Below are positions 21,051 to 57,388 of a stretch of 64,000 nt of DNA, piece by piece. Below the pieces are notes generated by a model. It was not told the DNA's origin. It was given only the letters and a program-made list of their open reading frames with translations, and searched no databases. The position numbers and the translations under genes were made by a program. How positions within the stretch are numbered: position 1 is the first letter of the stretch; the number at the start of each line of letters is the position of its first letter. The stretch comes from a bacterium (GTDB lineage: Bacteria; Myxococcota_A; UBA9160; SZUA-336): NCBI GenBank assembly GCA_041498295.1, contig JBGQIB010000001.1, forward strand, positions 2,428 through 66,427. Reading direction: 5' to 3'.

Positions 21051-21947
21051 ATGCGCCGCGCCCTCCCCCACCCGAGCCTCGCCGTCGGGCTTGCGCTCAT
21101 GGGTGCGATCTGGGCGTCCGGCTACGCCGCGCTCGGTGAATGGAACGTTCATCCGAGCATTCCGTTCGGCGTCGGCGCCTTGCTCGCGCTCTATGCGCTC
21201 GCGGTCGGCCCGCTGCGCGAGGCGCGTGCTCTCGGCCCTCCGGTGCCCGTCGAGCAGTGGCTCTCGTTCGTGACCGGCGCCGTCGTGCTGTTCGTCGCGC
21301 TCACGGGTCCGGTGCACGACCTGTCCGACTCGTATCTCTTCTCCGCGCACATGATCCAGCACCTGCTGATCACTTTGCTCGCGCCACCTCTCTTGCTGAT
21401 CGGCACGCCGGCTTGGCTCGTGCGCTATCTCGTGCGACCCGCACCGGTGCACCGGGTCGCGCTCTTTCTGGGTCACCCGACGGTCGCGTTCATCGCTTGG
21501 AACGGAACCTTGCTTCTCTGGCACCTGCCGCCGCTCTACAACGCGACGCTCGTCGATCTCGACGTGCACATCTTCGAGCACCTGCTGTTCATCGTGACCG
21601 CGACGATGGCGTGGTGGCCGACCTTGGCGCCCGCGCACGAGCTGCGCGCGCCGATGGTGTTCCAGCTGATCTATCTGCTGTTGCTGCCGATCCCGATGAA
21701 GGTGCTCGGCATGATGCTGACGTTCTCGACCGGCGTTCTGTACCCGGCCTATGCGATCGCGCCGCGCATCTGGGACATCTCGCCGACGGTCGATCAGCAG
21801 ATCGGCGGGATCATCATGTGGGTGCCCGCGGGCTTCGTCATCTGGATCAACCTCGCCGCACACTTCTTCCGCTGGTACCGCGAGAGCGCGCGCCAGGACC
21901 GCGGCGAGACGAACGTCGTCCCCCTGACACGCGAGCGTGTCACGTGA
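21051..21947 (+). CDS. ctaG: Cytochrome c oxidase caa3-type assembly factor CtaG (Caa3_CtaG family), polytopic membrane protein.
   Basis: Multiple TM helices with HxxxHxH-like motifs (HMIQHLL, HIFEHLLF). Confidence 0.75.
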   Translation: MRRALPHPSLAVGLALMGAIWASGYAALGEWNVHPSIPFGVGALLALYALAVGPLREARALGPPVPVEQWLSFVTGAVVLFVALTGPVHDLSDSYLFSAHMIQHLLITLLAPPLLLIGTPAWLVRYLVRPAPVHRVALFLGHPTVAFIAWNGTLLLWHLPPLYNATLVDLDVHIFEHLLFIVTATMAWWPTLAPAHELRAPMVFQLIYLLLLPIPMKVLGMMLTFSTGVLYPAYAIAPRIWDISPTVDQQIGGIIMWVPAGFVIWINLAAHFFRWYRESARQDRGETNVVPLTRERVT

Positions 21948-29404: not shown

Positions 29405-29426
29405 GAGTTGAGACACCGTTCGGTGT
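29405..29426 (-). terminator. Candidate terminator hairpin downstream of purN (GACACCG-TTC-GGTGTC).
   Basis: Perfect 7-bp stem seen in sequence, followed on the transcribed strand by a moderately U-rich stretch. Confidence 0.35.
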
Positions 29427-29453
29427 CGCTGGCGCGGGCGAACCGGGGCGTCG

Positions 29454-41939: not shown

Positions 41940-42024
41940 GCGCGGAGCGCGAAGGCGCGCAGTGAGCCGCAGGCGAACGAAGAGCGGGTGGGCGGGCTTC
42001 GCCCGCCCGGGTCCCGCTAAGGGC
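41940..42024 (-). repeat. Stop-codon-abutting repeat, full copy at the argG stop (CTTAGCGGG... on the transcribed strand) with hairpin GGGCGGGC-TTC-GCCCGCCC.
   Basis: Conserved boxes GCGCAGTGAGCCGCAGGCGAACGAAGAGCGGGTGG and CCCGCTAAG. The TAG of CTAAG is the argG stop codon. Confidence 0.6.
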
Positions 42025-43210
42025 GGAGCTTGAGGCGGAGTGCGTTCAGCTTGATGAAGCCCGTGGCGTCGCGCTGGTCGTAGCTGCCACCGGCCTCGAA
42101 CGTCGCGATGTCCTCGCGGTACAGCGAGTGCGGCGAGCGGCGGCCGCGCACCATGACGGCGCCCTTGAACAGGCGCATGCGCACCTCGCCGCTCACGTGC
42201 TCCTGACTCTTGTCGATCGCCGCGCGCAGAAATTCCATCTCGGGCGAGAACCAGAAGCCGGCATAGATGAGTTGCGCGATGCGGGGAATCAGTCGGTCGC
42301 GCTCGAGCATGACTTCGCGGTCGAGCGTGATCGACTCGAGCGCGCGGTGCGCGCCGTGCAGCACGGTTCCACCCGGTGTCTCGTAGACGCCGCGCGACTT
42401 CATGCCCACGGCGCGATCCTCGACGAGATCCACGCGACCGACGCCGTGCTCCGCCGCGAGCTCGTTCAAGCGAGTCAGTAACTCGACCGGTCCGAGCGGC
42501 CGCCCGTCGACCTTCACCGGCACCCCGCGCTCGAACTCGATCTGGAGCTCGCTCGGCTGGTCCGGCGCGTCGGCGACGGCGTTCGTCCACTCGAACATCT
42601 CCTCGTCGGGCGCGCGCCACGGATCCTCGAGAATCCCGCCCTCGTAACTGATGTGGTAGATGTTCCGATCCAGCGAGTAAGGCTTGCGCAGGGTCGCGTC
42701 GACGGGAATGTCGTGCTTGCGCGCGTAGGCCATGAGCTCGGTGCGGCCGCCCATGTCCCAGGTGCGCCAGGGCGCGATGATCTGGAGATCCGGCGCGAGC
42801 GCGTGGAAGGCGAGCTCGAAGCGCATCTGGTCGTTGCCCTTGCCCGTGCAGCCGTGCGCGACCGCGTCCGCGCCGACTTGGCGCGCGATCCGCACCTGCT
42901 CCTTCGCGAGCACCGGCCGCGCGAGAGACGTGCCGAGCAGATAGCTGCCCTCGTAGACCGCGTTCGCGCTGATCGCCGGGAACACGAAGTCGCGCACGAA
43001 CTCCTCGCGCAGGTCCGAGATCACACAGTCGACGGCGCCGGTCGCGAGCGCCTTCTTGTGCACGGCGTCGAGGTCCTCGCCCTGCCCCACGTTGCCGACG
43101 TAGCAAACCACTTCCGCCGCGTACGTCTCGATCAGCCAGCGCAGGATCACCGAAGTGTCGAGCCCGCCGCTGTACGCCAACACGATCCGCTTGATGTCGC
43201 CCTTGCTCAT
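42017..43210 (-). CDS. argG: Argininosuccinate synthase.
   Basis: MSKGDIKRIVLAYSGGLDTS..., typical ArgG throughout. Upstream ORF extension lies within a repeat element and is rejected. Confidence 0.95.
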   Translation of the reverse strand: MSKGDIKRIVLAYSGGLDTSVILRWLIETYAAEVVCYVGNVGQGEDLDAVHKKALATGAVDCVISDLREEFVRDFVFPAISANAVYEGSYLLGTSLARPVLAKEQVRIARQVGADAVAHGCTGKGNDQMRFELAFHALAPDLQIIAPWRTWDMGGRTELMAYARKHDIPVDATLRKPYSLDRNIYHISYEGGILEDPWRAPDEEMFEWTNAVADAPDQPSELQIEFERGVPVKVDGRPLGPVELLTRLNELAAEHGVGRVDLVEDRAVGMKSRGVYETPGGTVLHGAHRALESITLDREVMLERDRLIPRIAQLIYAGFWFSPEMEFLRAAIDKSQEHVSGEVRMRLFKGAVMVRGRRSPHSLYREDIATFEAGGSYDQRDATGFIKLNALRLKLRP

Positions 43211-43254
43211 GAACGGCATCATAGCGAGCACGCCGTTCCGAGGTAGGGAGCAAG

Positions 43255-43372
43255 CCGCGGGCGCGCGGCGCGCAGCGAGCCGCAGGCGAGCGAAGAGCGG
43301 GTGGCGCGGCTTAGCCCGACACCGGCGCGCGGGCCGGTGTCCCGCGGGAGCGGGCCCCGCTAAGTCACTCGA
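43255..43372 (-). repeat. Stop-codon-abutting repeat, full copy starting at the TGA of the DUF4388 gene. Hairpin GACACCGGC-N-GCCGGTGTC.
   Basis: GCGCAGCGAGCCGCAGGCGAGCGAAGAGCGGGTGG...CCCCGCTAAG-TCA(stop). Confidence 0.6.
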
Positions 43373-44114
43373 CGACTCCCTCGCGGACGAGCTTGGCAAT
43401 GATCTCGAGCGTGCGGACGCGGTCGGCGGTGGAGACGGAGAGGAGGTCGGCGATCGACATGCGGCCGTCGATCTGGGAGAGCATGAAGCCTTCGTCCGGC
43501 TGCAGGCGCAGCTTCATGACCTGCTGAGTCGTGACCTTCAGGCGCAGCACGTGGCCCTGGTCGCCGAGCTCCTTGGCCCACGCCTGCGCTCGCTCGGTGC
43601 GCACGAGCTGCAGGTAGCCCTGCACGTCGAGGCGGTCGGGCTCGTCCTTCGCGAGCTTTCGCAGCTCCGTGAAGGCGTCGTCGTAGCGCCCTTCCTTGTA
43701 CGCCTGGAGCGCGGACTGAATCTGCGTGTCCGGGTCGTCGTCCGCGTCGAACTCGATCACCGGGCCGCTCTTCGGTGTGTCGTCCTCGTCGGTGACCGGG
43801 CGCGCGCCCCTACCGGCGGGCTTCGCGGACGCGGCCTTCGGCGCGGGCTTCGGGACAGAGCCCTTCGGCGTCGAGCTCTTGGCGGGCGCGCTCGGCGGCT
43901 TCGCGGCCTTCGGCGGCGCGCCCTTCTTCTTGCTCGCGTTCCCGCCCTGCTCCTCGTAAGCGGTCTCGAGATAGTCGTGCACGGCCTGGTTCTCGGGGTC
44001 GAGCGCGCGCGCCTGCTCCCAGCACGAGATGGCGGCCTCGAGGTCGCCCAACCCGTAGTGATTCAGGCCGCGCTTGAGCAGCCGAGTGACTTCAGCGTGT
44101 CTCGCGTCGTCCAC
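43365..44114 (-). CDS. TPR-like N-terminus plus DUF4388-like C-terminal domain protein with a Lys/Pro/Ala-rich linker.
   Basis: C-terminal GHVLRLKVTTQQVMKLRLQPDEGFMLSQIDGRMSIADLL resembles the DUF4388 (PatA-N-like) domain common in Myxococcota. Directly downstream of the Hsp70 gene (4-nt gap). Confidence 0.55.
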   Translation of the reverse strand: MDDARHAEVTRLLKRGLNHYGLGDLEAAISCWEQARALDPENQAVHDYLETAYEEQGGNASKKKGAPPKAAKPPSAPAKSSTPKGSVPKPAPKAASAKPAGRGARPVTDEDDTPKSGPVIEFDADDDPDTQIQSALQAYKEGRYDDAFTELRKLAKDEPDRLDVQGYLQLVRTERAQAWAKELGDQGHVLRLKVTTQQVMKLRLQPDEGFMLSQIDGRMSIADLLSVSTADRVRTLEIIAKLVREGVVE

Positions 44115-44117
44115 GAC

Positions 44118-45695
44118 TCAGCCTTTGACGGCGACCTCGTCGCCCTGCTGGTACATATTCGCGAGGCGCTCGATTTCTTCCGGCGTCAGCGTGCCGCGCG
44201 GATTCACCTGGATCGAATGAGCGCGGCCGGTCGCGAGATCGCGCGCCGAGACCGACACGATGCCGTTCGCATCGATGTCGAACGTGACCTCGATCTCCGG
44301 CTGGCCCTTCGGTCCGGGCGGAATGCCGGCGAGCACGAATTCGCCGAGCAGATCGTTGTCGTCCGCGCGCTCGCTCTCGCCCTGCAGCACGCGGATCTTC
44401 ACCGCGGTCTGATTGTCACGCGTGGTGGTGAAGATCTCCTGGCGCGATGTCGGCACCGTGGTGTTGCGCTCGATGAGCTTCGCGAAGTGACCGCCGAAGG
44501 TCGCGATGCCGAGCGACAGCGGAGTCACATCGACGAGGAGCGGGCCCTCCTTCTCCTCGCTGAGCATCGCCGCCTGGATCGCGGCGCCGACCGCGACGAC
44601 TTCGTCGGGATTCACGCCCTTGTGCGGGGTCTTCCCGAAGAACGACGCGACCGTCTTCTGCACCATCGGCATGCGTGTTTGACCGCCGACCAGCAGCACC
44701 TGGTCGATCTGCTTCACGGTGAGCTTCGCGTCGTCGAGAGCGCGCTGCACGATCGGCTGAGTGCGGAGGACGAGCTCGCCGACGAGCTCCTCGAGTTTCT
44801 CGCGCGTGAGCAGCACGCTCATGTGCAGCGCGTTCTCTTCCGCGTCCGCCGCGATGAACGGCAGATTGATCTCGGTCGAGCCGAGCTGCGAGAGATCGCA
44901 CTTCGCCTTTTCCGAGGCATCCTTCAGCCGCTGCAGCGCCATCGTGTCGCCGCGCAGCGAGAGCTTTTCCTTCTCCTGGAAGGTCGCGAGCAGGTGATCG
45001 ACGATCTTGCGGTCGAAGTCCTCGCCGCCGAGCTGTGTGTCGCCGGAGGTCGCGAGCACCTCGATCACGCCCTTGCCCATTTGCAGGATCGAGATGTCGA
45101 ACGTGCCGCCGCCGAGGTCGTAGACCGCGATGATCTCGGTCTTGTCACGGCCGAAGCCGTAGGCGAGCGCCGCCGCCGTCGGCTCGTTGATGATGCGCAA
45201 GAGCTCGAGGCCCGCGATGCGCCCGGCGTCGCGCGTCGTCTGGCGCTGCGCGTCGTTGAAGTAGGCGGGCACTGTGATGACGGCCTGCTGCACGGTGTCT
45301 CCGAGATACTCCTCGGCGACGCGCTTCATCTCGCGCAGCACGATGCCCGAGATCTCGGGGATCGTGTACACGCGCCCCGCGACGCGCACGCGCACGTCGT
45401 TGTTCGGGCCCTGGACCAGCTCGTACGGCAGCAGCTCCTTGAACTTGGAGACGTCCTGCGAATCGAAGCTGCGTCCGATCAAGCGCTTCGCCGCATAGAC
45501 CGTGTTCTTCGCGTTCGTGACGGCCTGGCGCTTGGCGAGGTGACCCACCAGGCGCTTGCCCTCCTCCGTGACGGCGAAGATCGACGGCGTCGTCTTGTAC
45601 CCGCCCGTGTTGGGAATCACGACGGGCTGGCCATCCTCGAGGATGGCCACGCAGGAGTTCGTGGTTCCCAGATCGATTCCGATTACTCGACTCAT
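44118..45695 (-). CDS. Hsp70-family chaperone lacking the C-terminal helical lid (525 aa, HscC-like).
   Basis: [25 protein letters not shown] motifs. Substrate-binding beta domain present. Ends ~110 aa short of canonical DnaK. Confidence 0.9.
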
Positions 45696-45716
45696 TTCGT
45701 TCCCTTCGCGGCGCAG

Positions 45717-45732
45717 GACACTCTAGAGTGTC
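45717..45732. promoter_or_regulatory. Perfect 16-bp palindrome GACACTCTAGAGTGTC overlapping the J-protein stop codon, 25 nt upstream of the Hsp70 start.
   Basis: Seen directly. The self-complementary sequence spans the TAG stop. Confidence 0.4.
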
Positions 45733-46760
45733 TGGAGCGCCTGGCGGATCTCCTTGTCCATCGGATCGAGCTCCCACGCGCGCTGCAGGTGCTTGCGCGC
45801 CTTTTGTGAGTCGCCGGCCTTGCGGTAGACTTCGCCGGCGAGCTTACGGAACGGAATGCTCTCTTCGTCCAGCGCGACGGCGCGCTCCGCGTAGAGCGCC
45901 GCCTTCTCGAGACCGCCCTCGAGCCCGGCGAGTAACTCGGCGAGCTTTTGCGCGAGCTCCGCGTCGGTCGGAGAGAGCTGCGCGGCCTCCTCGAGCAGCT
46001 CGGCGGCGCCCGCGCGGTCGCCGGAGAGCAGCATCTCGGCCTTGCGGCGCACCGCGGCCGCGCGTTCCGCGTTCGCGCGCGGGAGGATCTCGGCGAGCTC
46101 GTCGTGGTAGCGCTTTTCGCGCGGGTCGAACGCGAGCGCGAGCTCGACGAGCTGCGCGGCTCGCGCCCAGTCACCGTTCTGTTTCTGCAGCATCGCGGCG
46201 TCGAATTGCTTGCTCGCGCGCGCGCGGCTCTGTTCGAGCTGGCGCTGCAGCGAGATGAGCATCAGGCCGGGTGACTTGAGACCGAGTCGGCCGCGCAGCG
46301 ACGCACCGCGGCCGGAGGTGGGCGCGCGTGACAAGGGCACGGCAGGCGGCGGGATCGTGACCGGACGTGACTCGGTGGTCGTCGGCGAGAGCGAGCGATC
46401 GTACGCGCCGCGCAGCTTCGGATCGCGGAGCACGTCGTGCGCGGCGACGATGCGCTTGTACACCTCGTTCAACAGGTCCGCGTACGGACCGAGCTCCTTC
46501 TTGAAGTAGCGATCGGGGTGGTAGGTCTTCGAGCGCTGGAAGAAGGCGTCGCGAATGTCGGCGGACTCGGCTTCGCGCGGGACGCCGAGCACGTCGTAGT
46601 ACGTGAGCGTGGCGAGTGAGCGCGCGAACTCGCGGACATCGCGCTGAAACGCTTCGGGCAAATCCACGCGAGCGCCCGCGTTCGCTGCCTCGTTCGAGGC
46701 CGCTTCGCCGTCGGTGCTCGAACTCATCCCGCCTCCACGCCGATGCGCAATTCGCCCCAC
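45723..46760 (-). CDS. J-domain (DnaJ-like) co-chaperone with C-terminal TPR repeats.
   Basis: YYDVLGVPREAESADIRDAFFQRSKTYHPDR (HPD motif). TPR-like helices in the C-terminal 200 aa. Start may be the internal ATG (MSSSTDG). Confidence 0.8.
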   Translation of the reverse strand: MGRIAHRRGGGMSSSTDGEAASNEAANAGARVDLPEAFQRDVREFARSLATLTYYDVLGVPREAESADIRDAFFQRSKTYHPDRYFKKELGPYADLLNEVYKRIVAAHDVLRDPKLRGAYDRSLSPTTTESRPVTIPPPAVPLSRAPTSGRGASLRGRLGLKSPGLMLISLQRQLEQSRARASKQFDAAMLQKQNGDWARAAQLVELALAFDPREKRYHDELAEILPRANAERAAAVRRKAEMLLSGDRAGAAELLEEAAQLSPTDAELAQKLAELLAGLEGGLEKAALYAERAVALDEESIPFRKLAGEVYRKAGDSQKARKHLQRAWELDPMDKEIRQALQTL

Positions 46761-46836
46761 AAGCTATCGGGGGGCCTCGGCGGGAAATTGAGGCGCGCGG
46801 ACGCGAAGCGGCGCGGCTGTCGCGCGTGTCGCGCGG

Positions 46837-47781
46837 CTAGCGAGCGATCAAAAGCTCGAGGATCGCCTTCTGCGCGTGCAGGCGATTTTCAGCTTGATCG
46901 AACACGATCGCGCGCGCGGATTCGAACACGTCCGCGGTGATCTCTTCGCCGCGGTGCGCGGGCAGGCAGTGCAGGATGCGCGCCCCGGGCGCGAGCGCGA
47001 CGAGCTCCGCGTTCAGCTGATACGGGCGAAAGATGCGCCGCCGCGCCTCGGCTTCGCTCTCCTGTCCCATGCTGGCCCACACGTCCGTGTAGAGGAAGGC
47101 GGCGCCCTTCACCGCCTCGCGCGGATCGGCGACGAAGCGGATCTGCGCGCCCGTCTGCGCCGCGCGCTCGAGCGCCGTGCGCACGAGCGCTGGGTCGGGC
47201 GCGTAGCCCGGCGGGGTGCTCACCACGAGCGACATGCCGAGGCACGCGGCGAGATTGATCAGCGAGTGACACATGTTGTTGCCGTCGCCGATGTAGCTGA
47301 CTTGGTCTCGGCGCAGGTCACCGTGCTCGAGGATCGTGAGCGCGTCCGCCATGGCCTGACACGGGTGCAGCCAGTCGGTGAGCGCGTTGATCACCGGTAC
47401 ACTCGCGTGTGTCGCCAGGGTCTGTACGACGTCGTGGCCATACGTGCGCGCGACGATCCCGTGGCACCAGCGCGAGAGGTTGCGGGCGACGTCCTCGGGC
47501 GGTTCGCGCTCGCCGATCTGCACCTGCCCGGGCGGGAGATACACCGGAAACCCGCCCAGCTCGACGACGCCTACTTCGAAGGTCACGAACGTGCGCAGAC
47601 TCGGCTTCGCGAAGTAGAGCAGAATCGAGCAGCCGTCGAGCGAGCGCACCGGCACGCGCCGGCGGCGCAGGTCCTTCAGCTCGAGCGCGCGCGCGAGAAT
47701 CTCCTCGATCGCGTCGCGGGGCCACTCCGCGATCGACAGGAAGTCCTTGGGGACGCGGCGCTCAGGCCTTTGAGCGGACAA
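46837..47781 (-). CDS. argF: Ornithine carbamoyltransferase (start possibly the GTG at ~47754 to avoid a 20-nt overlap with argB).
   Basis: SLRTF carbamoyl-phosphate motif, HPCQ, HCLPA motifs. Confidence 0.85.
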   Translation of the reverse strand: MSAQRPERRVPKDFLSIAEWPRDAIEEILARALELKDLRRRRVPVRSLDGCSILLYFAKPSLRTFVTFEVGVVELGGFPVYLPPGQVQIGEREPPEDVARNLSRWCHGIVARTYGHDVVQTLATHASVPVINALTDWLHPCQAMADALTILEHGDLRRDQVSYIGDGNNMCHSLINLAACLGMSLVVSTPPGYAPDPALVRTALERAAQTGAQIRFVADPREAVKGAAFLYTDVWASMGQESEAEARRRIFRPYQLNAELVALAPGARILHCLPAHRGEEITADVFESARAIVFDQAENRLHAQKAILELLIAR

Positions 47782-48628
47782 GTTTCGTTCCCACGCCGCC
47801 GTCGGTGAAGATCTCGAGCAAGAGCGCGTGCGGCACGCGCCCGTCGATGATGTGCGCCGCGGTGACTCCGCGCTCCATCGCGCGCACGGCGCACTCGAGC
47901 TTCGGAATCATGCCGCCCTTCACCGTACCGTCCGCGATCGAGCGCCGCACCTCCGCCTCGGTCATCTGGTGGATGAGCTGCCTCGCGTCGTCGAGTACGC
48001 CCTCGACGTCGGTGAGCAGGATCAGCTTCTCGGCCGCGAGCGCCTCGGCGATCGCGCCCGCGGCGGTATCGGCGTTGACGTTGTAGGTGACTCCCTGCGC
48101 GTCCACGCCGACGGGCGCGACGACGGGAATGAAGCCGTCCTTGGTGAGTGTCTTGATCAGCGAGACGTCGACACGCTCTGGTGTACCCACGAGGCCCAGG
48201 TCGCGGCCGGCCGGGCCGAATAGGCGCTTCACGCGCAGGAAGCCGCCGGCGTCCTTGCCGGTGAGGCCGATCGCCTGGCCGCCGGCGGCGCCGATGAGTG
48301 ACACGATCTCGGCGTTGATCTGACCGCCGAGCACCATCTCGACGACCTCCATCGTCTCCTGGTCGGTGACTCGAACACCGTCGACGAACTCGGACTTCTT
48401 GCCGAGTCGCGCGAGCAGCTGGCCGATCTGGGGACCGCCGCCGTGCACGATCACCGGGCGCAGCCCGATGAAGCGCAGCAAGGTCACGTCGGTCGCGAAC
48501 GAGGCTTTGAGCGCGTCGTTCTCCATCGCGGCGCCGCCGTACTTGATCACCACCGTCTTGTCGAAGAACGCGCGGATGTAGGGCAGCGCCTCGACCAGCG
48601 TGTTTGCCTTGCGAATCAGCTCTTCCAT
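47762..48628 (-). CDS. argB: Acetylglutamate kinase.
   Basis: VIKYGGAAM, VHGGGPQI motifs. Confidence 0.9.
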   Translation of the reverse strand: MEELIRKANTLVEALPYIRAFFDKTVVIKYGGAAMENDALKASFATDVTLLRFIGLRPVIVHGGGPQIGQLLARLGKKSEFVDGVRVTDQETMEVVEMVLGGQINAEIVSLIGAAGGQAIGLTGKDAGGFLRVKRLFGPAGRDLGLVGTPERVDVSLIKTLTKDGFIPVVAPVGVDAQGVTYNVNADTAAGAIAEALAAEKLILLTDVEGVLDDARQLIHQMTEAEVRRSIADGTVKGGMIPKLECAVRAMERGVTAAHIIDGRVPHALLLEIFTDGGVGTKLVRSKA

Positions 48629-48634
48629 CGCCGC

Positions 48635-49957
48635 CTACAAGATGAAGCGCGAGAGCTCTCGGTCTCCCGCGATGTCCGAGAGTCGCTCGCGCACGCGCGC
48701 GGCGTCGAAGACTTCGCTCGAGCCTCCGCGGTCGGGCGCTTCGAAGAGCGCGTCGTCGAGGAGTCTCTCGAGCACGGTATGCAAGCGCCGCGCGCCTATG
48801 TTCTCGGTCGAGCGATTCACTTCCGCCGCGATGCGCGCGATCTCGCGAATCGCGTCCGGCTTGAACTCGAGCCGCACGTTCTCGGTCGCGAGCAGCGCTT
48901 GATACTGCTTCACGAGCGCATTGTGCGGCTCCTCGAGGATCCGCACAAATGCCGCCTCGTCCAGATCCTCGAGCTCGACGCGGATCGGGAAGCGCCCCTG
49001 CAACTCCGGGATCAGGTCGGAGGGCCGCGAGACGTGAAACGCCCCGGCCGCAATGAACAGAATGTGGTCGGTGCGCACCGTGCCGTGCTTCGTCTGCACG
49101 CTCGTACCCTCGACGATCGGCAGTAAGTCGCGCTGCACGCCCTCGCGAGAGACGTCGGCGCCGTGTGTCTCGCGGCGCGCGATCTTGTCGATCTCGTCGA
49201 TGAACACGATGCCGGTCTGCTCGGTGCGCTGCAGCGCGCGCTCGCGCACGGCGTCTTGGTCGATCAAGCGGCCCGCCTCCTCGTCGCGCAGGAAGTCGCG
49301 CGCCTGCGCGACCTTCACGCGCCGCGAGCGCGTCCGCTTGGGCATCAGGTTGCCCATCAGATCCTTCAGTGAGACGCCCATTTCCTCGATGCCCTGCGGC
49401 GAGAAGATCTCGAGCGTCGGACCCGAGCGCTCGGGCATGTCGATCTCGACCTCGCGCTCCTCGAGCTCGCCGGAGCGCAGCTTCGCGCGCATGCGTTCGC
49501 GGGTCGAATCCGATCCCTCGCTCGTGCCCTTCATCTCCGGGGTTCGCGGGTACAGCGCGTCGAGCAGCCGCTCCTCGGCGATCCGCTCCGCGGAGGCTTG
49601 CACCTTCGCGAGCTCCTCGTCGCGCACCAGCTTGATGCCGACCTCCATCAGGTCGCGCACGATCGAGTCGACGTCGCGCCCTACGTAGCCGACCTCGGTG
49701 AACTTCGAGGCTTCGACCTTCACGAACGGCGCGGCCGCGAGCTTCGCGAGCCGGCGCGCGATCTCGGTCTTTCCGACGCCGGTCGGGCCGATCATCAGGA
49801 TGTTCTTCGGGTGAATCTCGTCCTTGAGATCACCCGACACATTTTGGCGTCGCCAGCGATTGCGCAGCGCGATGGCCACCGCGCGCTTCGCGGCGTGCTG
49901 GCCGACGATGAAGCGATCGAGCTCCGAGACCACCTCGCGCGGAGTGAAGGTTCTCAA
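48635..49957 (-). CDS. hslU: ATP-dependent protease ATPase subunit HslU. TTG start overlapping the hslV stop (TTGA).
   Basis: [35 protein letters not shown] Walker A. The long upstream ORF extension overlaps hslV in another frame and is rejected. Confidence 0.9.
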
Positions 49958-50496
49958 AGCGCGAGCTCCTCGATGCTGATTTGGTCGTTTGTGTACAAGC
50001 AGATCTCCGCGGCGATGCGCAAGCTGCGCTCCGCGATCTCGCGCGCCGAGAGCTCCGTCGCGTCGAGCAGCGCGCGCGCGGCGGCGAGCGCATACGCGCC
50101 CCCGGAGCCGATTGCGGCCACTCCGCCATCGGGCTCGATCACGTCGCCGTTGCCGGAGATGACGAGCATGTCCTGCACGTCGGCGACGATCAGCAGCGCC
50201 TCGAGGCGGCGCATCGAGCGATCGGTGCGCCAGTCCTTCGCCAGCTCGACGGCGGCGCGGCGCAGGATGCCGCCGCGCTCCTCGAGCTTCGCCTCGAAGC
50301 GCTCCGCGAGCGCGAACGCGTCGGCGGTCGAGCCCGCGAAGCCCGCGAGCACCTTGCCGCCGCGCAGCCGCTGGATCTTCTTCGCGGTCCGCTTCATCAC
50401 CATCTCGCCGAACGTGACTTGGCCGTCGCCGGCGATCACCACGCTGGCGCCTCGCTTCACGGCGATCACGGTCGTGGCGTGAAACTGCGCCGTCAT
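49954..50496 (-). CDS. hslV: ATP-dependent protease subunit HslV.
   Basis: TTVIAV N-terminal threonine protease signature, GSGGAYA. Confidence 0.9.
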
Positions 50497-50581
50497 GGCG
50501 GGTTAGCGGCGGGCAAAGCTCGCCTGCCCGCACGGCAGTGCGGCGCACCGCCTTCGGTGCTCGTGGCCAGGGCTCGTGTCA

Positions 50582-54778: not shown

Positions 54779-57388
54779 ATGTCCGAGCTCCCGCAAAGCT
54801 ACGAGCCCGACAAAGCCGAGGGCCGCTGGGCCGAGCGCTGGGAACGCGAGGGCGTATACCGCTGGGATCCGGCGCGCCGCCGCGACGAGACGTTCGTCAT
54901 CGACACACCGCCGCCCACGGTGTCCGGGTCGCTGCACATCGGCCACGTCTTCAGCTACACGCACGCGGATCTGATCGCGCGCTTCCAGCGCATGCGCGGC
55001 AAGAACGTCGCGTTCCCGATCGGCTGGGACGACAACGGACTGCCGACGGAGCGGCGCGTGCAGATCGTGCTCGGACTGCGCCCGAATACGAAACTCGCGT
55101 ACGACCCGCACTGGCAGCCGCGCCGCGACAAAAAGGCCGACGAACCGCTCGAAGACGTCTCGCCGCAGAACTTCATCGAGGCCTGCAAGCTCGTGATGAG
55201 CGAGGACGAGGCAGTATTCGAGGCGCTCTGGCGGCGGCTCGGTCTCTCGTACGACTGGACGCAGCTCTACCGCACGATCGCGGATCACCCGCGGCGCATC
55301 GCGCAGCTCTCATTTCTCGACCTCTACGCGAAGCGCGAGGCGTACTCGAAATTCGCCCCCACGATGTGGGACGTCGACGACCAGACCGCGGTCGCGCAGG
55401 CGGAGACGGAGGACCGCGAGCAGCCCGGCGCGTATCACGATCTACGCTTTTCGGTGTTGGGCGGCGGCGAGCTCACGATCTCGACGACGCGGCCCGAGCT
55501 GCTCGGCGCCTGCGTCGCGGTGGTCGCGCATCCCGACGACGAGCGCTACCGCGCGCTCTTCGGCAAGACGGCGCGCACACCCCTCTTCCACGCGCCGGTG
55601 CCGATCGTGGCCAGTGCGCACGCCGATCCCGAGAAGGGCACGGGCATCCTGATGGTGTGCACGTTCGGCGATCAGGCCGACGTGGAGTTCTGGCGCGCCC
55701 AGAGCCTGCCGCTGCGCCAGCTGATCGGCCCCGACGGGCGCATGCGCCGCGTGGTCTTCGGCGAAGCGCCCTTCGCCAGCGAGGATGCGGCGCGCGCGCG
55801 CGCCGCCTGGGCCGAGCTCGAGGGAAAAACGGTCAAGCAGGCGCGCGCGAAGATCGTCGAGCTGCTGCGCGCCGACGGCGCGCTCGTCGGCGAGCCGCGC
55901 GCGATCACGCATCCGGTGAAGTTCTACGAGCGCGGCTCGCGCCCGCTCGAGTTCTTGCCCACGCGCCAGTGGTTCGTGCGCATCCTGGTACACAGAGATG
56001 CGTTGCTCGAGCAGGGCCGGAAGATCGAGTGGCACCCGGCGCACATGCGCGCGCGCTACGAGAACTGGGTGCAAGGCTTGAATCAGGACTGGTGCGTGAG
56101 TCGCCAGCGCTTCTCGGGCGTGCCCTTCCCGGTCTGGTACCGGCTCGACGCACAGGGCCGGCCCGACCATGAGCGCCCGCTGCTCGCGCGCGCCGAGGAG
56201 CTTCCCGTCGACCCGCGCCTGCAGCCGCCGACGGGCTACGGCGAGGCGCAGCGCGGCCAGCCGGGCGGATTCATCGGCGATGCGGACGTCATGGACACCT
56301 GGGCGACGTCGTCGATGTCGCCGCAGATCATGAGTCACTGGACGCTCGACCCCGCGCGTCACGCACAGCTGTTCCCGATGGACATGCGCCCGCAGGCGCA
56401 CGAGATCATCCGCACCTGGCTCTTCTACACGGTCGTGAAGGCGTATCTGCACGAGCGCGAGATCCCGTGGAAACACGCTGTGATCAGCGGCTGGATCCTC
56501 GACCCGGACCGCAAGAAGATGAGCAAGTCGAAGGGCAACGTGACTACGCCCGCGCACTTGCTCGACCAGCACTCGGCCGACGCGGTGCGCTACTGGGCGG
56601 CGCGCGCGCGGCTGGGCGTCGACACGACCTTCGACGAGCAGGTGATGAAGCTCGGCAAGCGCCTCGCGACGAAGCTCGTGAACGCCGGCCGCTTCGCGAT
56701 CCTGCAGCTCGAGCGCGCCGGCGCCACGCCGGAGACACATCCGGCGAGCGCGATCTCGCACCCGCTCGACGTCGACTTCGCGGCGCGCCTGCGCGAACTG
56801 GTCGCGCGCGCGACCGCGTCGTTCGAGGAGTTCGAGTACGCCGCCGCGCTGCAGGCCACGGAAGAGGCATTCTGGGACTTCTGCGACAACTATCTCGAGA
56901 TCGTGAAGGTGCGCGCGTACGCGGAGTCACCCTCGCCCGAGCAGCGCTCGGCGCTCGCGACGCTGCAGCTCGCGCTGCGCGTCTTCCTGCGGCTGTTCGC
57001 GCCTGCGCTGCCGTTCGTGAGCGACGAGATCTGGTCGTGGCGCTTCGCGGCGAGCGCGGGCGGCCGTTCGATTCACTCGGGTCCGTGGCCGAGCGTCGAG
57101 GAGTTCGCCGGTATTTCGCTCGAGCGCGCGGGCCGCGCGTATGCGGCCGCGTGCGAGATATCGACGCGGATTCGCGGCGCGAAGACGAGCGCGAAGAAGA
57201 GCCTGCGCTGGCCGGTCGCGCGCCTCGAGGTGCGCGGCGCGGAGCCCGACCTCGCCGCTCTGCGCACGGTGCTACCCGACGTCCTCGCCGCCGGCGTGGT
57301 CGACACCGCTGGGTGTCGCCTCTCCGCGGGTGCGCCCAGCGACGGAGCGATCTTCGCGACCGAGGTAGAGCTGGCTACGGCGTCTTAG
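54779..57388 (+). CDS. valS: Valine--tRNA ligase (compact type lacking the C-terminal coiled coil).
   Basis: PPPTVSGSLHIGH (HIGH), KMSKSKGNV (KMSKS), editing-domain sequences. ATG at 54779 just after the CPBP stop. Confidence 0.9.
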   Translation: MSELPQSYEPDKAEGRWAERWEREGVYRWDPARRRDETFVIDTPPPTVSGSLHIGHVFSYTHADLIARFQRMRGKNVAFPIGWDDNGLPTERRVQIVLGLRPNTKLAYDPHWQPRRDKKADEPLEDVSPQNFIEACKLVMSEDEAVFEALWRRLGLSYDWTQLYRTIADHPRRIAQLSFLDLYAKREAYSKFAPTMWDVDDQTAVAQAETEDREQPGAYHDLRFSVLGGGELTISTTRPELLGACVAVVAHPDDERYRALFGKTARTPLFHAPVPIVASAHADPEKGTGILMVCTFGDQADVEFWRAQSLPLRQLIGPDGRMRRVVFGEAPFASEDAARARAAWAELEGKTVKQARAKIVELLRADGALVGEPRAITHPVKFYERGSRPLEFLPTRQWFVRILVHRDALLEQGRKIEWHPAHMRARYENWVQGLNQDWCVSRQRFSGVPFPVWYRLDAQGRPDHERPLLARAEELPVDPRLQPPTGYGEAQRGQPGGFIGDADVMDTWATSSMSPQIMSHWTLDPARHAQLFPMDMRPQAHEIIRTWLFYTVVKAYLHEREIPWKHAVISGWILDPDRKKMSKSKGNVTTPAHLLDQHSADAVRYWAARARLGVDTTFDEQVMKLGKRLATKLVNAGRFAILQLERAGATPETHPASAISHPLDVDFAARLRELVARATASFEEFEYAAALQATEEAFWDFCDNYLEIVKVRAYAESPSPEQRSALATLQLALRVFLRLFAPALPFVSDEIWSWRFAASAGGRSIHSGPWPSVEEFAGISLERAGRAYAAACEISTRIRGAKTSAKKSLRWPVARLEVRGAEPDLAALRTVLPDVLAAGVVDTAGCRLSAGAPSDGAIFATEVELATAS

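Follow-up and report, generated by a model that had tools for sequence, protein, structure and literature searches.

A conserved DnaK-system variant with a lidless Hsp70, a J-domain/TPR protein and a TPR/winged-helix protein from Myxococcota

Three genes between argF and argG

The window analyzed here is a stretch of 64,000 nucleotides from a bacterium of Myxococcota_A (UBA9160, SZUA-336; GenBank assembly GCA_041498295.1, contig JBGQIB010000001.1, positions 2,428 to 66,427 of the forward strand). Between argF and argG, the minus strand of the window carries three closely spaced, co-directional open reading frames (ORFs), which encode a J-domain protein with tetratricopeptide repeats (TPRs), an Hsp70 derived from DnaK, and a second TPR protein, here designated as gene 3 (Table 1). 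This module is a real, conserved and uncharacterized variant of the DnaK system. In Pfam, the first ORF matches DnaJ and TPR models, the second ORF matches HSP70 (E = 6e-212) at profile positions 1-516 of 599 only, and the third ORF matches TPR models. A first-pass annotation of the window had described these three genes together with a palindrome on the stop codon of the J gene, and all of them were confirmed by ORF reading, Pfam and an exact sequence match.

The genes are tightly packed. Gene 3 starts with a GTG 3 nt past the stop codon of the Hsp70 gene, and this translational adjacency is kept in relatives; a TPR protein had correctly been placed directly behind the Hsp70 gene, with a gap of 4 nt that is in fact 3 nt. 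The Hsp70 gene is preceded by a Shine-Dalgarno-like sequence, which is either GAAGGGA or GAGGGAA in relatives. The J gene most likely begins at the ATG at 46727, which is preceded by GGAGG (46732-46736) and gives the 334-aa protein reported by gene callers. The upstream GTG at 46760, taken as the start at first, is unlikely because it sits inside a conserved non-coding leader.

The GC content of the window is 68.5%, and it is uniform across the region without any compositional island. No known RNA family matched in the region, and no grpE lies adjacent to the module. The anti-phage defence models of PADLOC gave zero matches in the module region; an anti-phage defence module was rejected on this result, the housekeeping neighbours and the uniform GC content.

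Table 1. Positions of the genes, protein domains and non-coding elements in the window
Feature	Position	Strand	Residues	Basis or remark
argF	46837-47781			flanks the operon on the J-gene side
Bipartite promoter-like box TCAATTT-N14-CCGAT	46766..46791	-		J-gene leader
TTGCGCATCG box	46741..46750	-		between promoter-like box and ribosome-binding site; conserved in relatives
Class-C J-domain protein, 334 aa	45723..46727	-		Pfam DnaJ E = 8e-14, several TPR models
J domain	46398-46604	-	42-110	Pfam
HPD tripeptide	46512-46520	-	70-72	read from sequence
C-terminal TPR array of the J protein	about 45735-46193	-		preceded by a Pro/Ser-rich linker
16-bp palindrome GACACTCTAGAGTGTC	45717..45732	.		exact match, unique in window; J-gene TAG (45723-45725) at its centre
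Shine-Dalgarno-like GAAGGGA of the Hsp70 gene	45701..45707	-		read from sequence
DnaK-derived Hsp70, 525 aa	44118..45695	-		DnaK/HscC alignment, residue audit, Pfam, NCBIfam
Hsp70 nucleotide-binding domain			1-384
Hsp70 linker PLLVD			385-389
Hsp70 beta-sandwich substrate-binding domain			390-503
Hsp70 helix A			504-519	followed by terminal EVAVKG
Gene 3, 249 aa	43365..44114	-		ORF, Pfam TPRs, AlphaFold2
Gene 3 TPR-like three-helix unit 1	43941-44114	-	1-58
Gene 3 disordered Pro/Ala/Lys linker		-	59-127
Gene 3 TPR-like unit 2	43560-43733	-	128-185
Gene 3 C-terminal winged-helix domain	43368-43559	-	186-249
GC-rich hairpin GACACCGGC-N6-GCCGGTGTC	43318..43341	.		downstream of gene 3; inverted repeat I22
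argG	about 42017-43222			flanks the operon on the gene 3 side

The lidless Hsp70 and its two partner proteins

The Hsp70 shows 55% identity to E. coli DnaK over DnaK residues 1-523 (alignment A1), versus 40% to HscC. DnaK residues 524-632, which include the lid helices B to E and the disordered tail, have no counterpart in it, so that helix A is the only one left of helices A to E of the alpha-helical lid. MAFFT aligned the last six residues, EVAVKG, with the DnaK C-terminus EEVKDKK, and the loss of helices B to E looks like an internal deletion in the sequence alignment. The alignment of the Hsp70 to the solved chains of DnaK and mortalin stops at DnaK residue 517. With the NCBIfam models, the Hsp70 scores 770.2 for NF001413 (DnaK), above the cut-off of 648, and 746.7 for the stricter TIGR02350, under the cut-off of 822.55. 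The alignments and the Pfam match agree with the first-pass description of a protein that keeps the ATPase and beta-sandwich domains without the lid, helix A being the part of the lid that is left.

The functional residues were audited against DnaK. The catalytic residues D8, K70, E171, D194, T199 and D201 are all identical to those of DnaK (alignment A1). The J-domain docking residues R167, N170 and T173, the hydrophobic interdomain linker (PLLVD), and the salt bridges K55/R56-D/E of the GrpE-dependent DnaK type, including E267, are also retained. The core of the substrate cleft (I401, F426, V436, I438 and I472) is unchanged, while the residues of the substrate arch are altered, M404 to F (F400) and A429 to T (T425).

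A truncation of the Hsp70 gene by sequencing error, with a lid-encoding sequence in another frame, had been considered from the beginning. A tblastn search of the window with the DnaK lid revealed no lid-like sequence in any frame (the best E-value was 0.14, at an unrelated place), and no match to the lid was found in the 1.5 kb downstream of the Hsp70 stop. About 115 of the 120 best database homologues are 519-529 aa long. Their tails are conserved as well, ending in ...DEVAVKG in one clade and ...YEVQLKE in another, with the consensus [D/E]-E-V-x-V/L-K-G/E. Truncation by sequencing error was rejected on the absence of any lid in the tblastn search and the uniform length of the family. Because no frame contains a lid sequence and the lengths and ends of the homologues are conserved, the loss of the lid is natural and old within the family.

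Two proteins among the homologues are long (P0014, 716 aa, and P0011, 646 aa); they do not weigh against the rejection, and P0014 was examined. P0014 is a fusion caused by an assembly artefact and does not represent a different architecture. The contig that encodes it (L021; ERZ25039492 contig_43751) contains many split or fused gene calls, such as hslU fused with argB, and is ridden with frameshifts.

As a separate observation, the longest perfect palindrome of the window, the 22-bp TGGCCATCCTCGAGGATGGCCA at 45628-45649, lies inside the Hsp70 ORF, where it encodes ..VAILEDGQP....

In the J protein, the J domain alone matches DnaJ models, with scores all far under the equivalog cut-offs, and the Gly/Phe region, the zinc-finger region and the C-terminal domains of class A and B DnaJ proteins are not present. 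It is therefore classified as a class C J protein with TPRs. The "DnaJ-TPR" architecture is common in class C (PMC10410713). No transmembrane-like segment was found, the highest Kyte-Doolittle mean over 19 residues being 0.78, and the protein is soluble with C-terminal TPRs, as had been proposed. The homology search returned 129 homologues, and the few with a taxon named in their source are from metagenome-assembled genomes (MAGs) of Myxococcota.

The structure of the gene 3 product predicted with AlphaFold2 shows confident three-helix TPR-like units at residues 2-58 and 128-183, a disordered linker between them, and a compact C-terminal domain with the winged helix-turn-helix fold. This C-terminus had been labelled DUF4388. 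DUF4388 (PF14332) matched neither gene 3 nor its isolated C-terminal part at E<=10, and none of 58 sequences (gene 3 and 57 homologues) at E<=5. These scans reject the DUF4388 assignment, and the C-terminus is a separate winged-helix domain. No Pfam model exists for this domain, and a sequence search against solved structures gave no meaningful match. Its best matches are peptide-binding or protein-binding versions of the winged helix (NPRL2 and RiPP recognition elements), and it is mildly basic, with an isoelectric point (pI) of 8.5.

An exhaustive search with the 64-residue winged-helix domain revealed 147 proteins. Of the 146 that were scanned, 33 contain TPRs, 8 contain J domains and 6 contain DUF4388. 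In the J proteins P0384, P0413, P0429 and P0449, the winged helix is N-terminal to the J domain, in some of them twice. In the DUF4388 proteins (P0447, P0467, P0480 and P0481), it is C-terminal to a separate N-terminal DUF4388 domain, and this co-occurrence may explain the earlier label. One of these proteins, P0480, has a J domain in addition to DUF4388 and the winged helix.

Because it is fused elsewhere to J domains, TPRs and DUF4388, the winged helix is a recurrent, unnamed companion of parts of the Hsp70 system. Judged from these domain combinations, it seems to be a not yet described adaptor domain in the Hsp70 systems of myxobacteria. The fusions to J domains and TPRs in other proteins also argue that gene 3 works with the J protein.

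The stop-codon hairpin, the leader boxes and the operon end

The stop codon of the J gene is spanned by a perfect palindrome of 16 bp. This had been recognized correctly, as had its position on the TAG, while the distance of 25 nt to the Hsp70 ATG has to be corrected: the palindrome ends 21 nt and the TAG 27 nt before it. As RNA, the palindrome would form a stem of 6 bp with the loop CUAG, which can optionally be extended by GGCGC/GCGCC. It was not called as a Rho-independent terminator; the stem is followed by CCTGCGCC, with no T-run. A perfect palindrome of 16 bp is not statistically unusual in the window, which contains 13 perfect palindromes of at least 16 bp against about 5.9 expected from a first-order Markov model (200 of 200 simulations had at least one).

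The conservation of the palindrome was examined at 13 distinct junctions between the J and Hsp70 genes, including that of the window, which had been gathered by protein similarity alone. GACAC...GTGTC is kept in seven of them (the window, L007, L008, L009, L010, L012 and L021). L021 retains these arms around a different loop and a TGA stop codon. A different 5-bp hairpin (CAGGC/GCCTG) lies over the same stop codon in L013. The hairpin is absent in the remaining five, L011, L018, L020, L015 and L017, all of which keep the operon, and in L011 the J gene extends to overlap the start of the Hsp70 gene (ATGA).

A metagenome-wide motif scan stood in for a search of the source genome, the source samples possibly being outside the collection. 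It returned 103 stretches. Among the 80 that were listed, nine are orthologous junctions, some with a J protein only 65-67% identical, and 71 are in unrelated contexts, mostly low-GC; no other myxobacterial regulatory region with the palindrome was found among these 80. Fourteen distinct junctions retain the 3' arm GTGTC, with U.G as the sixth pair in 10 and U-A in three, and the three or four bases past this arm vary freely among relatives. The commonest form in relatives is GACACTCTAGGGTGTC, in which a change of A to G breaks the dyad of the DNA, but the pairing of the RNA is kept as a U.G wobble. The perfect form is limited to the lineage of the window and to L009 and L010.

From these comparisons, the most likely reading of the palindrome is a small hairpin of the RNA across the stop codon of the J gene, retained in a single subclade. 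There, it may adjust the stability of the mRNA, or re-initiation from the J cistron to the Hsp70 cistron, and a role as a processing or stability site affecting the Hsp70:J ratio, part of the initial proposal, is possible. The hairpin is dispensable for the module because sister lineages keep the operon without it. Several points weigh against the hairpin. A 65-nt RNA fold has an energy of -20.8 kcal/mol, which is not significant against shuffled sequences (z = -1.09). The 5' arm is constrained by coding, the inner stem includes no double compensatory change, and many of the 14 hairpin junctions were retrieved by searching for the motif itself.

In a possible, although rather doubtful, explanation, the palindrome has no function, its coding half (Q-T-L-stop) being fixed by the protein and the other half being due to chance or recent shared descent. 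The excess of perfect palindromes in the window, the RNA fold no better than shuffles, the loss or replacement of the element in several relatives with an unchanged operon, and the narrow distribution of the perfect form are all consistent with it. Against it, GTGTC is unchanged in L010, L064, L065 and L097, whose J proteins are 65-67% identical and whose adjoining non-coding bases differ. The arms kept by L021 around another loop and the different hairpin placed by L013 over the same codon also speak against this explanation.

It is quite improbable that a dimeric regulator, which could even be the winged-helix protein of gene 3, sets the expression of Hsp70 by using the palindrome as its DNA operator. 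A lineage-specific RNA hairpin is favored over the operator because the U.G form keeps the RNA pairing but breaks the dyad, and because sister lineages have lost the element. Located between two cistrons, the site has no promoter-like sequence near it in the scan, and none of the 71 unrelated contexts among the listed matches of the metagenome-wide scan is a further regulatory region of a myxobacterium. The resemblance of the winged helix to peptide-binding or protein-binding versions and its only mildly basic character also argue against a regulator. The operator reading of the first-pass annotation did not hold up on these points. The number of GACAC sites in the window offers it little, since the pattern was chosen post hoc and the copy past gene 3 is not conserved.

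The counts themselves are as follows. GACAC-N(0-14)-GTGTC occurs at six sites in the window against 1.2 expected, and none of 100 shuffles reached six. Four sites have the spacing N6 (21926-21941, 29412-29427, 45717-45732 and 57302-57317) and two have a longer spacing (43318-43341 and 54902-54924). At least two of the sites are apparently inside a long ORF.

In the leader of the J gene, a bipartite promoter-like box was revealed (consensus TCAAyTT-N14-CCGAT). In 15 distinct relatives, among them the distant L013, L015 and L020, its T/A/A/T/T and CCGAT columns do not vary. Each of 23 loci contains a single copy of the box and no other, and it is unique in the window, where zero copies are expected. 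The G6 run seen at 46771-46776 in the initial annotation is present, and it corresponds to the C-run just 5' of CCGAT, the length of which is variable among relatives. The TTGCGCATCG box is found in two to three tandem copies in L021, L064 and L010, and it is a candidate operator or element of the 5' untranslated region. To judge from their conservation, transcription is more probably controlled through TCAAyTT-N14-CCGAT and the TGCGCA box than through the palindrome.

Known regulatory elements were also considered. A scan for sigma-70 promoters and intrinsic terminators gave nothing useful, and an identity of the leader box as a sigma-54 or sigma-32 promoter was dropped, since the spacing is inconsistent among relatives by eye. 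The CIRCE/HrcA operator (TTAGCACTC-N9-GAGTGCTAA) is absent from the window with up to three mismatches. The palindrome was rejected as CIRCE, its CACTC/GAGTG halves being 2 nt apart and not 9.

The GC-rich hairpin downstream of gene 3 is replaced by a different GC-rich hairpin at the same place in most relatives (for example, L029, L012, L011, L021, L064, L016 and L020), and that of L020 has a classic T-tract. No terminator with a T-run was called by the scan at the end of gene 3 in the window. The hairpin downstream of gene 3 probably marks the end of the operon transcript.

Relationship to known Hsp70 systems and the proposed role

The exact Hsp70 is present in several MAG and metagenome contigs. 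The gene order (xerC-hslV-hslU-)argB-argF-J-Hsp70-gene 3, mostly followed by argG, is kept from 98% down to 71% identity of Hsp70. The conserved neighbourhood from xerC to argG corresponds to about 42017-50500 of the window and was observed in L001, L013-L018 and L020. Where a source annotation names a taxon, as only a few do, it points to uncultured Myxococcota. At the same locus, identities are 93-98% for Hsp70, 67-90% for the J protein and 70-84% for gene 3. In L010, they are 93.5% for Hsp70 and 67% and 70% for the partners; Hsp70 is far more constrained.

The module shares with the E. coli DnaK-DnaJ-GrpE system the ATPase, the J-docking residues, the linker, the GrpE-type salt bridges and the core of the substrate cleft. 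Compared with E. coli DnaK, the Hsp70 lacks the lid helices B to E, the long tail and a four-residue insert around D211, and its arch residues are F/T, not M/A. A class C J-TPR protein takes the place of DnaJ as the partner, there is no adjacent grpE, and the TPR/winged-helix gene is additional.

The loss of the lid with retention of the ATPase and the beta-sandwich is also found in engineered lidless DnaK (Slepenkov & Witt 2002; Moro et al. 2004; as cited in a passage of PMC12642450). By analogy, substrates may be exchanged fast, or the protein may have a sensing role. The lid is also missing from natural DnaK-like domains that are fused to EACC1-protease defence modules, whereas the Hsp70 of this module is standalone. 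Unlike both the engineered and the defence-fused proteins, it is very strongly conserved and has its own J protein, and no defence model matches.

Truncated DnaK derivatives are known in general from myxobacteria (PMC13580251), and in myxobacteria as many as 15 proteins are derived from DnaK, most of which have no known role (PMC8265645, PMC13580251). MXAN_2747 (WP_011552814.1) of Myxococcus xanthus is a DnaK-like protein with a "much shorter" alpha-helical part of the substrate-binding domain, and the gene of the J protein MXAN_2745 lies nearby (PMC8265645). It is deletable, with reported effects on sporulation and oxidative-stress resistance (PMC8265645, PMC11019930). Likened by description and not by sequence, it resembles the Hsp70 described here in its derivation from DnaK in a myxobacterium, its shortened lid and the J gene nearby. 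It differs in having cvpA (MXAN_2744) and a glutamine amidotransferase gene (MXAN_2748) nearby instead of arg genes, and no equivalent of gene 3 is reported.

Eukaryotic systems were also compared. DNAJC3/P58IPK and DNAJC7 are J-TPR proteins with the TPRs followed by the J domain, whereas here the J domain is followed by the TPRs. The TPR co-chaperones Hop, CHIP, PP5 and SGT bind an EEVD tail, while the Hsp70 tail here is EVAVKG or EVQLKE, and homology is claimed with neither group.

It is considered moderately probable that an uncultured Myxococcota lineage has inherited the module vertically as a three-gene operon, which encodes a specialized Hsp70 machine derived from DnaK. In such a machine, the J-TPR protein would select one or a few clients and trigger the ATPase of Hsp70. 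Like engineered lidless DnaK, the Hsp70 would bind and release fast and could accommodate clients that are bulky or folded. Gene 3 would be an adaptor or scaffold, whose TPR units or winged helix may dock on the Hsp70 tail, the J protein or the client, and nucleotide exchange would be left to the GrpE of the cell. Two points weigh against this picture: it leaves the constant arginine-synthesis neighbourhood without explanation, and the Hsp70 tail is not EEVD, with the positions of the carboxylate clamp offset by one residue in a by-eye alignment.

The module is a clean case for study, as its natural loss of the lid is strongly conserved and two dedicated partner genes accompany the Hsp70 gene in a fixed operon. 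How a lidless Hsp70 is used in the cell could be learned from it, and also whether bacterial TPR proteins read the Hsp70 tail as eukaryotic ones do. The module also draws attention to the unnamed winged helix that accompanies J domains. The palindrome itself is of little importance.

A stronger proposal is that the three proteins form an obligate three-part chaperone, in which the TPR/winged-helix module docks on the C-terminal ..EVxVKG of Hsp70, replacing the lid or tethering the machine to one client. This is speculative and seems rather improbable. If true, the module would be a bacterial counterpart, of independent origin, of the eukaryotic system of Hsp70 tails and TPR co-chaperones, and the winged helix would be an unnamed family of Hsp70-system adaptor domains widespread in Myxococcota.

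The location between argF and argG raises the alternative that the module serves arginine biosynthesis or the neighbouring HslUV protease, and it is favored by the gene order xerC-hslV-hslU-argB-argF-[module]-argG, which persists at Hsp70 identities as low as 71%. This alternative nevertheless appears distinctly unlikely. A conserved promoter-like box belongs to the module itself, a hairpin lies past gene 3, and synteny within one lineage can be plain inheritance. L018 and L021 have an ABC1 kinase gene past gene 3, and argG was not seen in the stretch fetched; the surroundings of the possibly related MXAN_2747 contain no arg genes either. The most distant module, that of L017 (7585-9254; 71% Hsp70 identity), has a longer J protein (416 aa), and between its gene 3 and argG lies an additional gene of 324 aa without Pfam match.

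The Hsp70 had been compared at first with E. coli HscC as another lidless protein. HscC proteins are 550-580 aa long and keep the lid, with a 9-residue deletion in helix B (PMC8215388; visible in alignment A1), so that this comparison fails. HscC further differs from DnaK in lacking residues 76-101 of lobe I, in carrying an insertion within loop L1,2 and in the loss of the GrpE salt bridges (PMC8215388). None of these features is seen in the Hsp70 described here, in which the lobe-I segment is present, the L1,2 insertion is absent and K55, R56 and E267 are kept. The two systems share a specialized Hsp70 of the non-essential type encoded beside its own J protein. The J partners of HscC (DjlB/DjlC type) are tail-anchored in the membrane, while the J protein here has no hydrophobic segment.

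Membership in the HscC/DjlC type, although suggested by the shared pairing with a J protein and by the TPR-like Sel1 proteins YbeQ and YbeT at the E. coli hscC locus, is therefore highly implausible given the higher identity to DnaK, the DnaK-like lobe I and loop L1,2, and the lid of HscC itself. At that locus in E. coli K-12 (L023, 676000-690000), the Sel1-repeat genes ybeQ and ybeT and two DUF1266 genes lie beside djlB and djlC, and these TPR-like genes may be viewed as a loose parallel to the TPR genes of the module.

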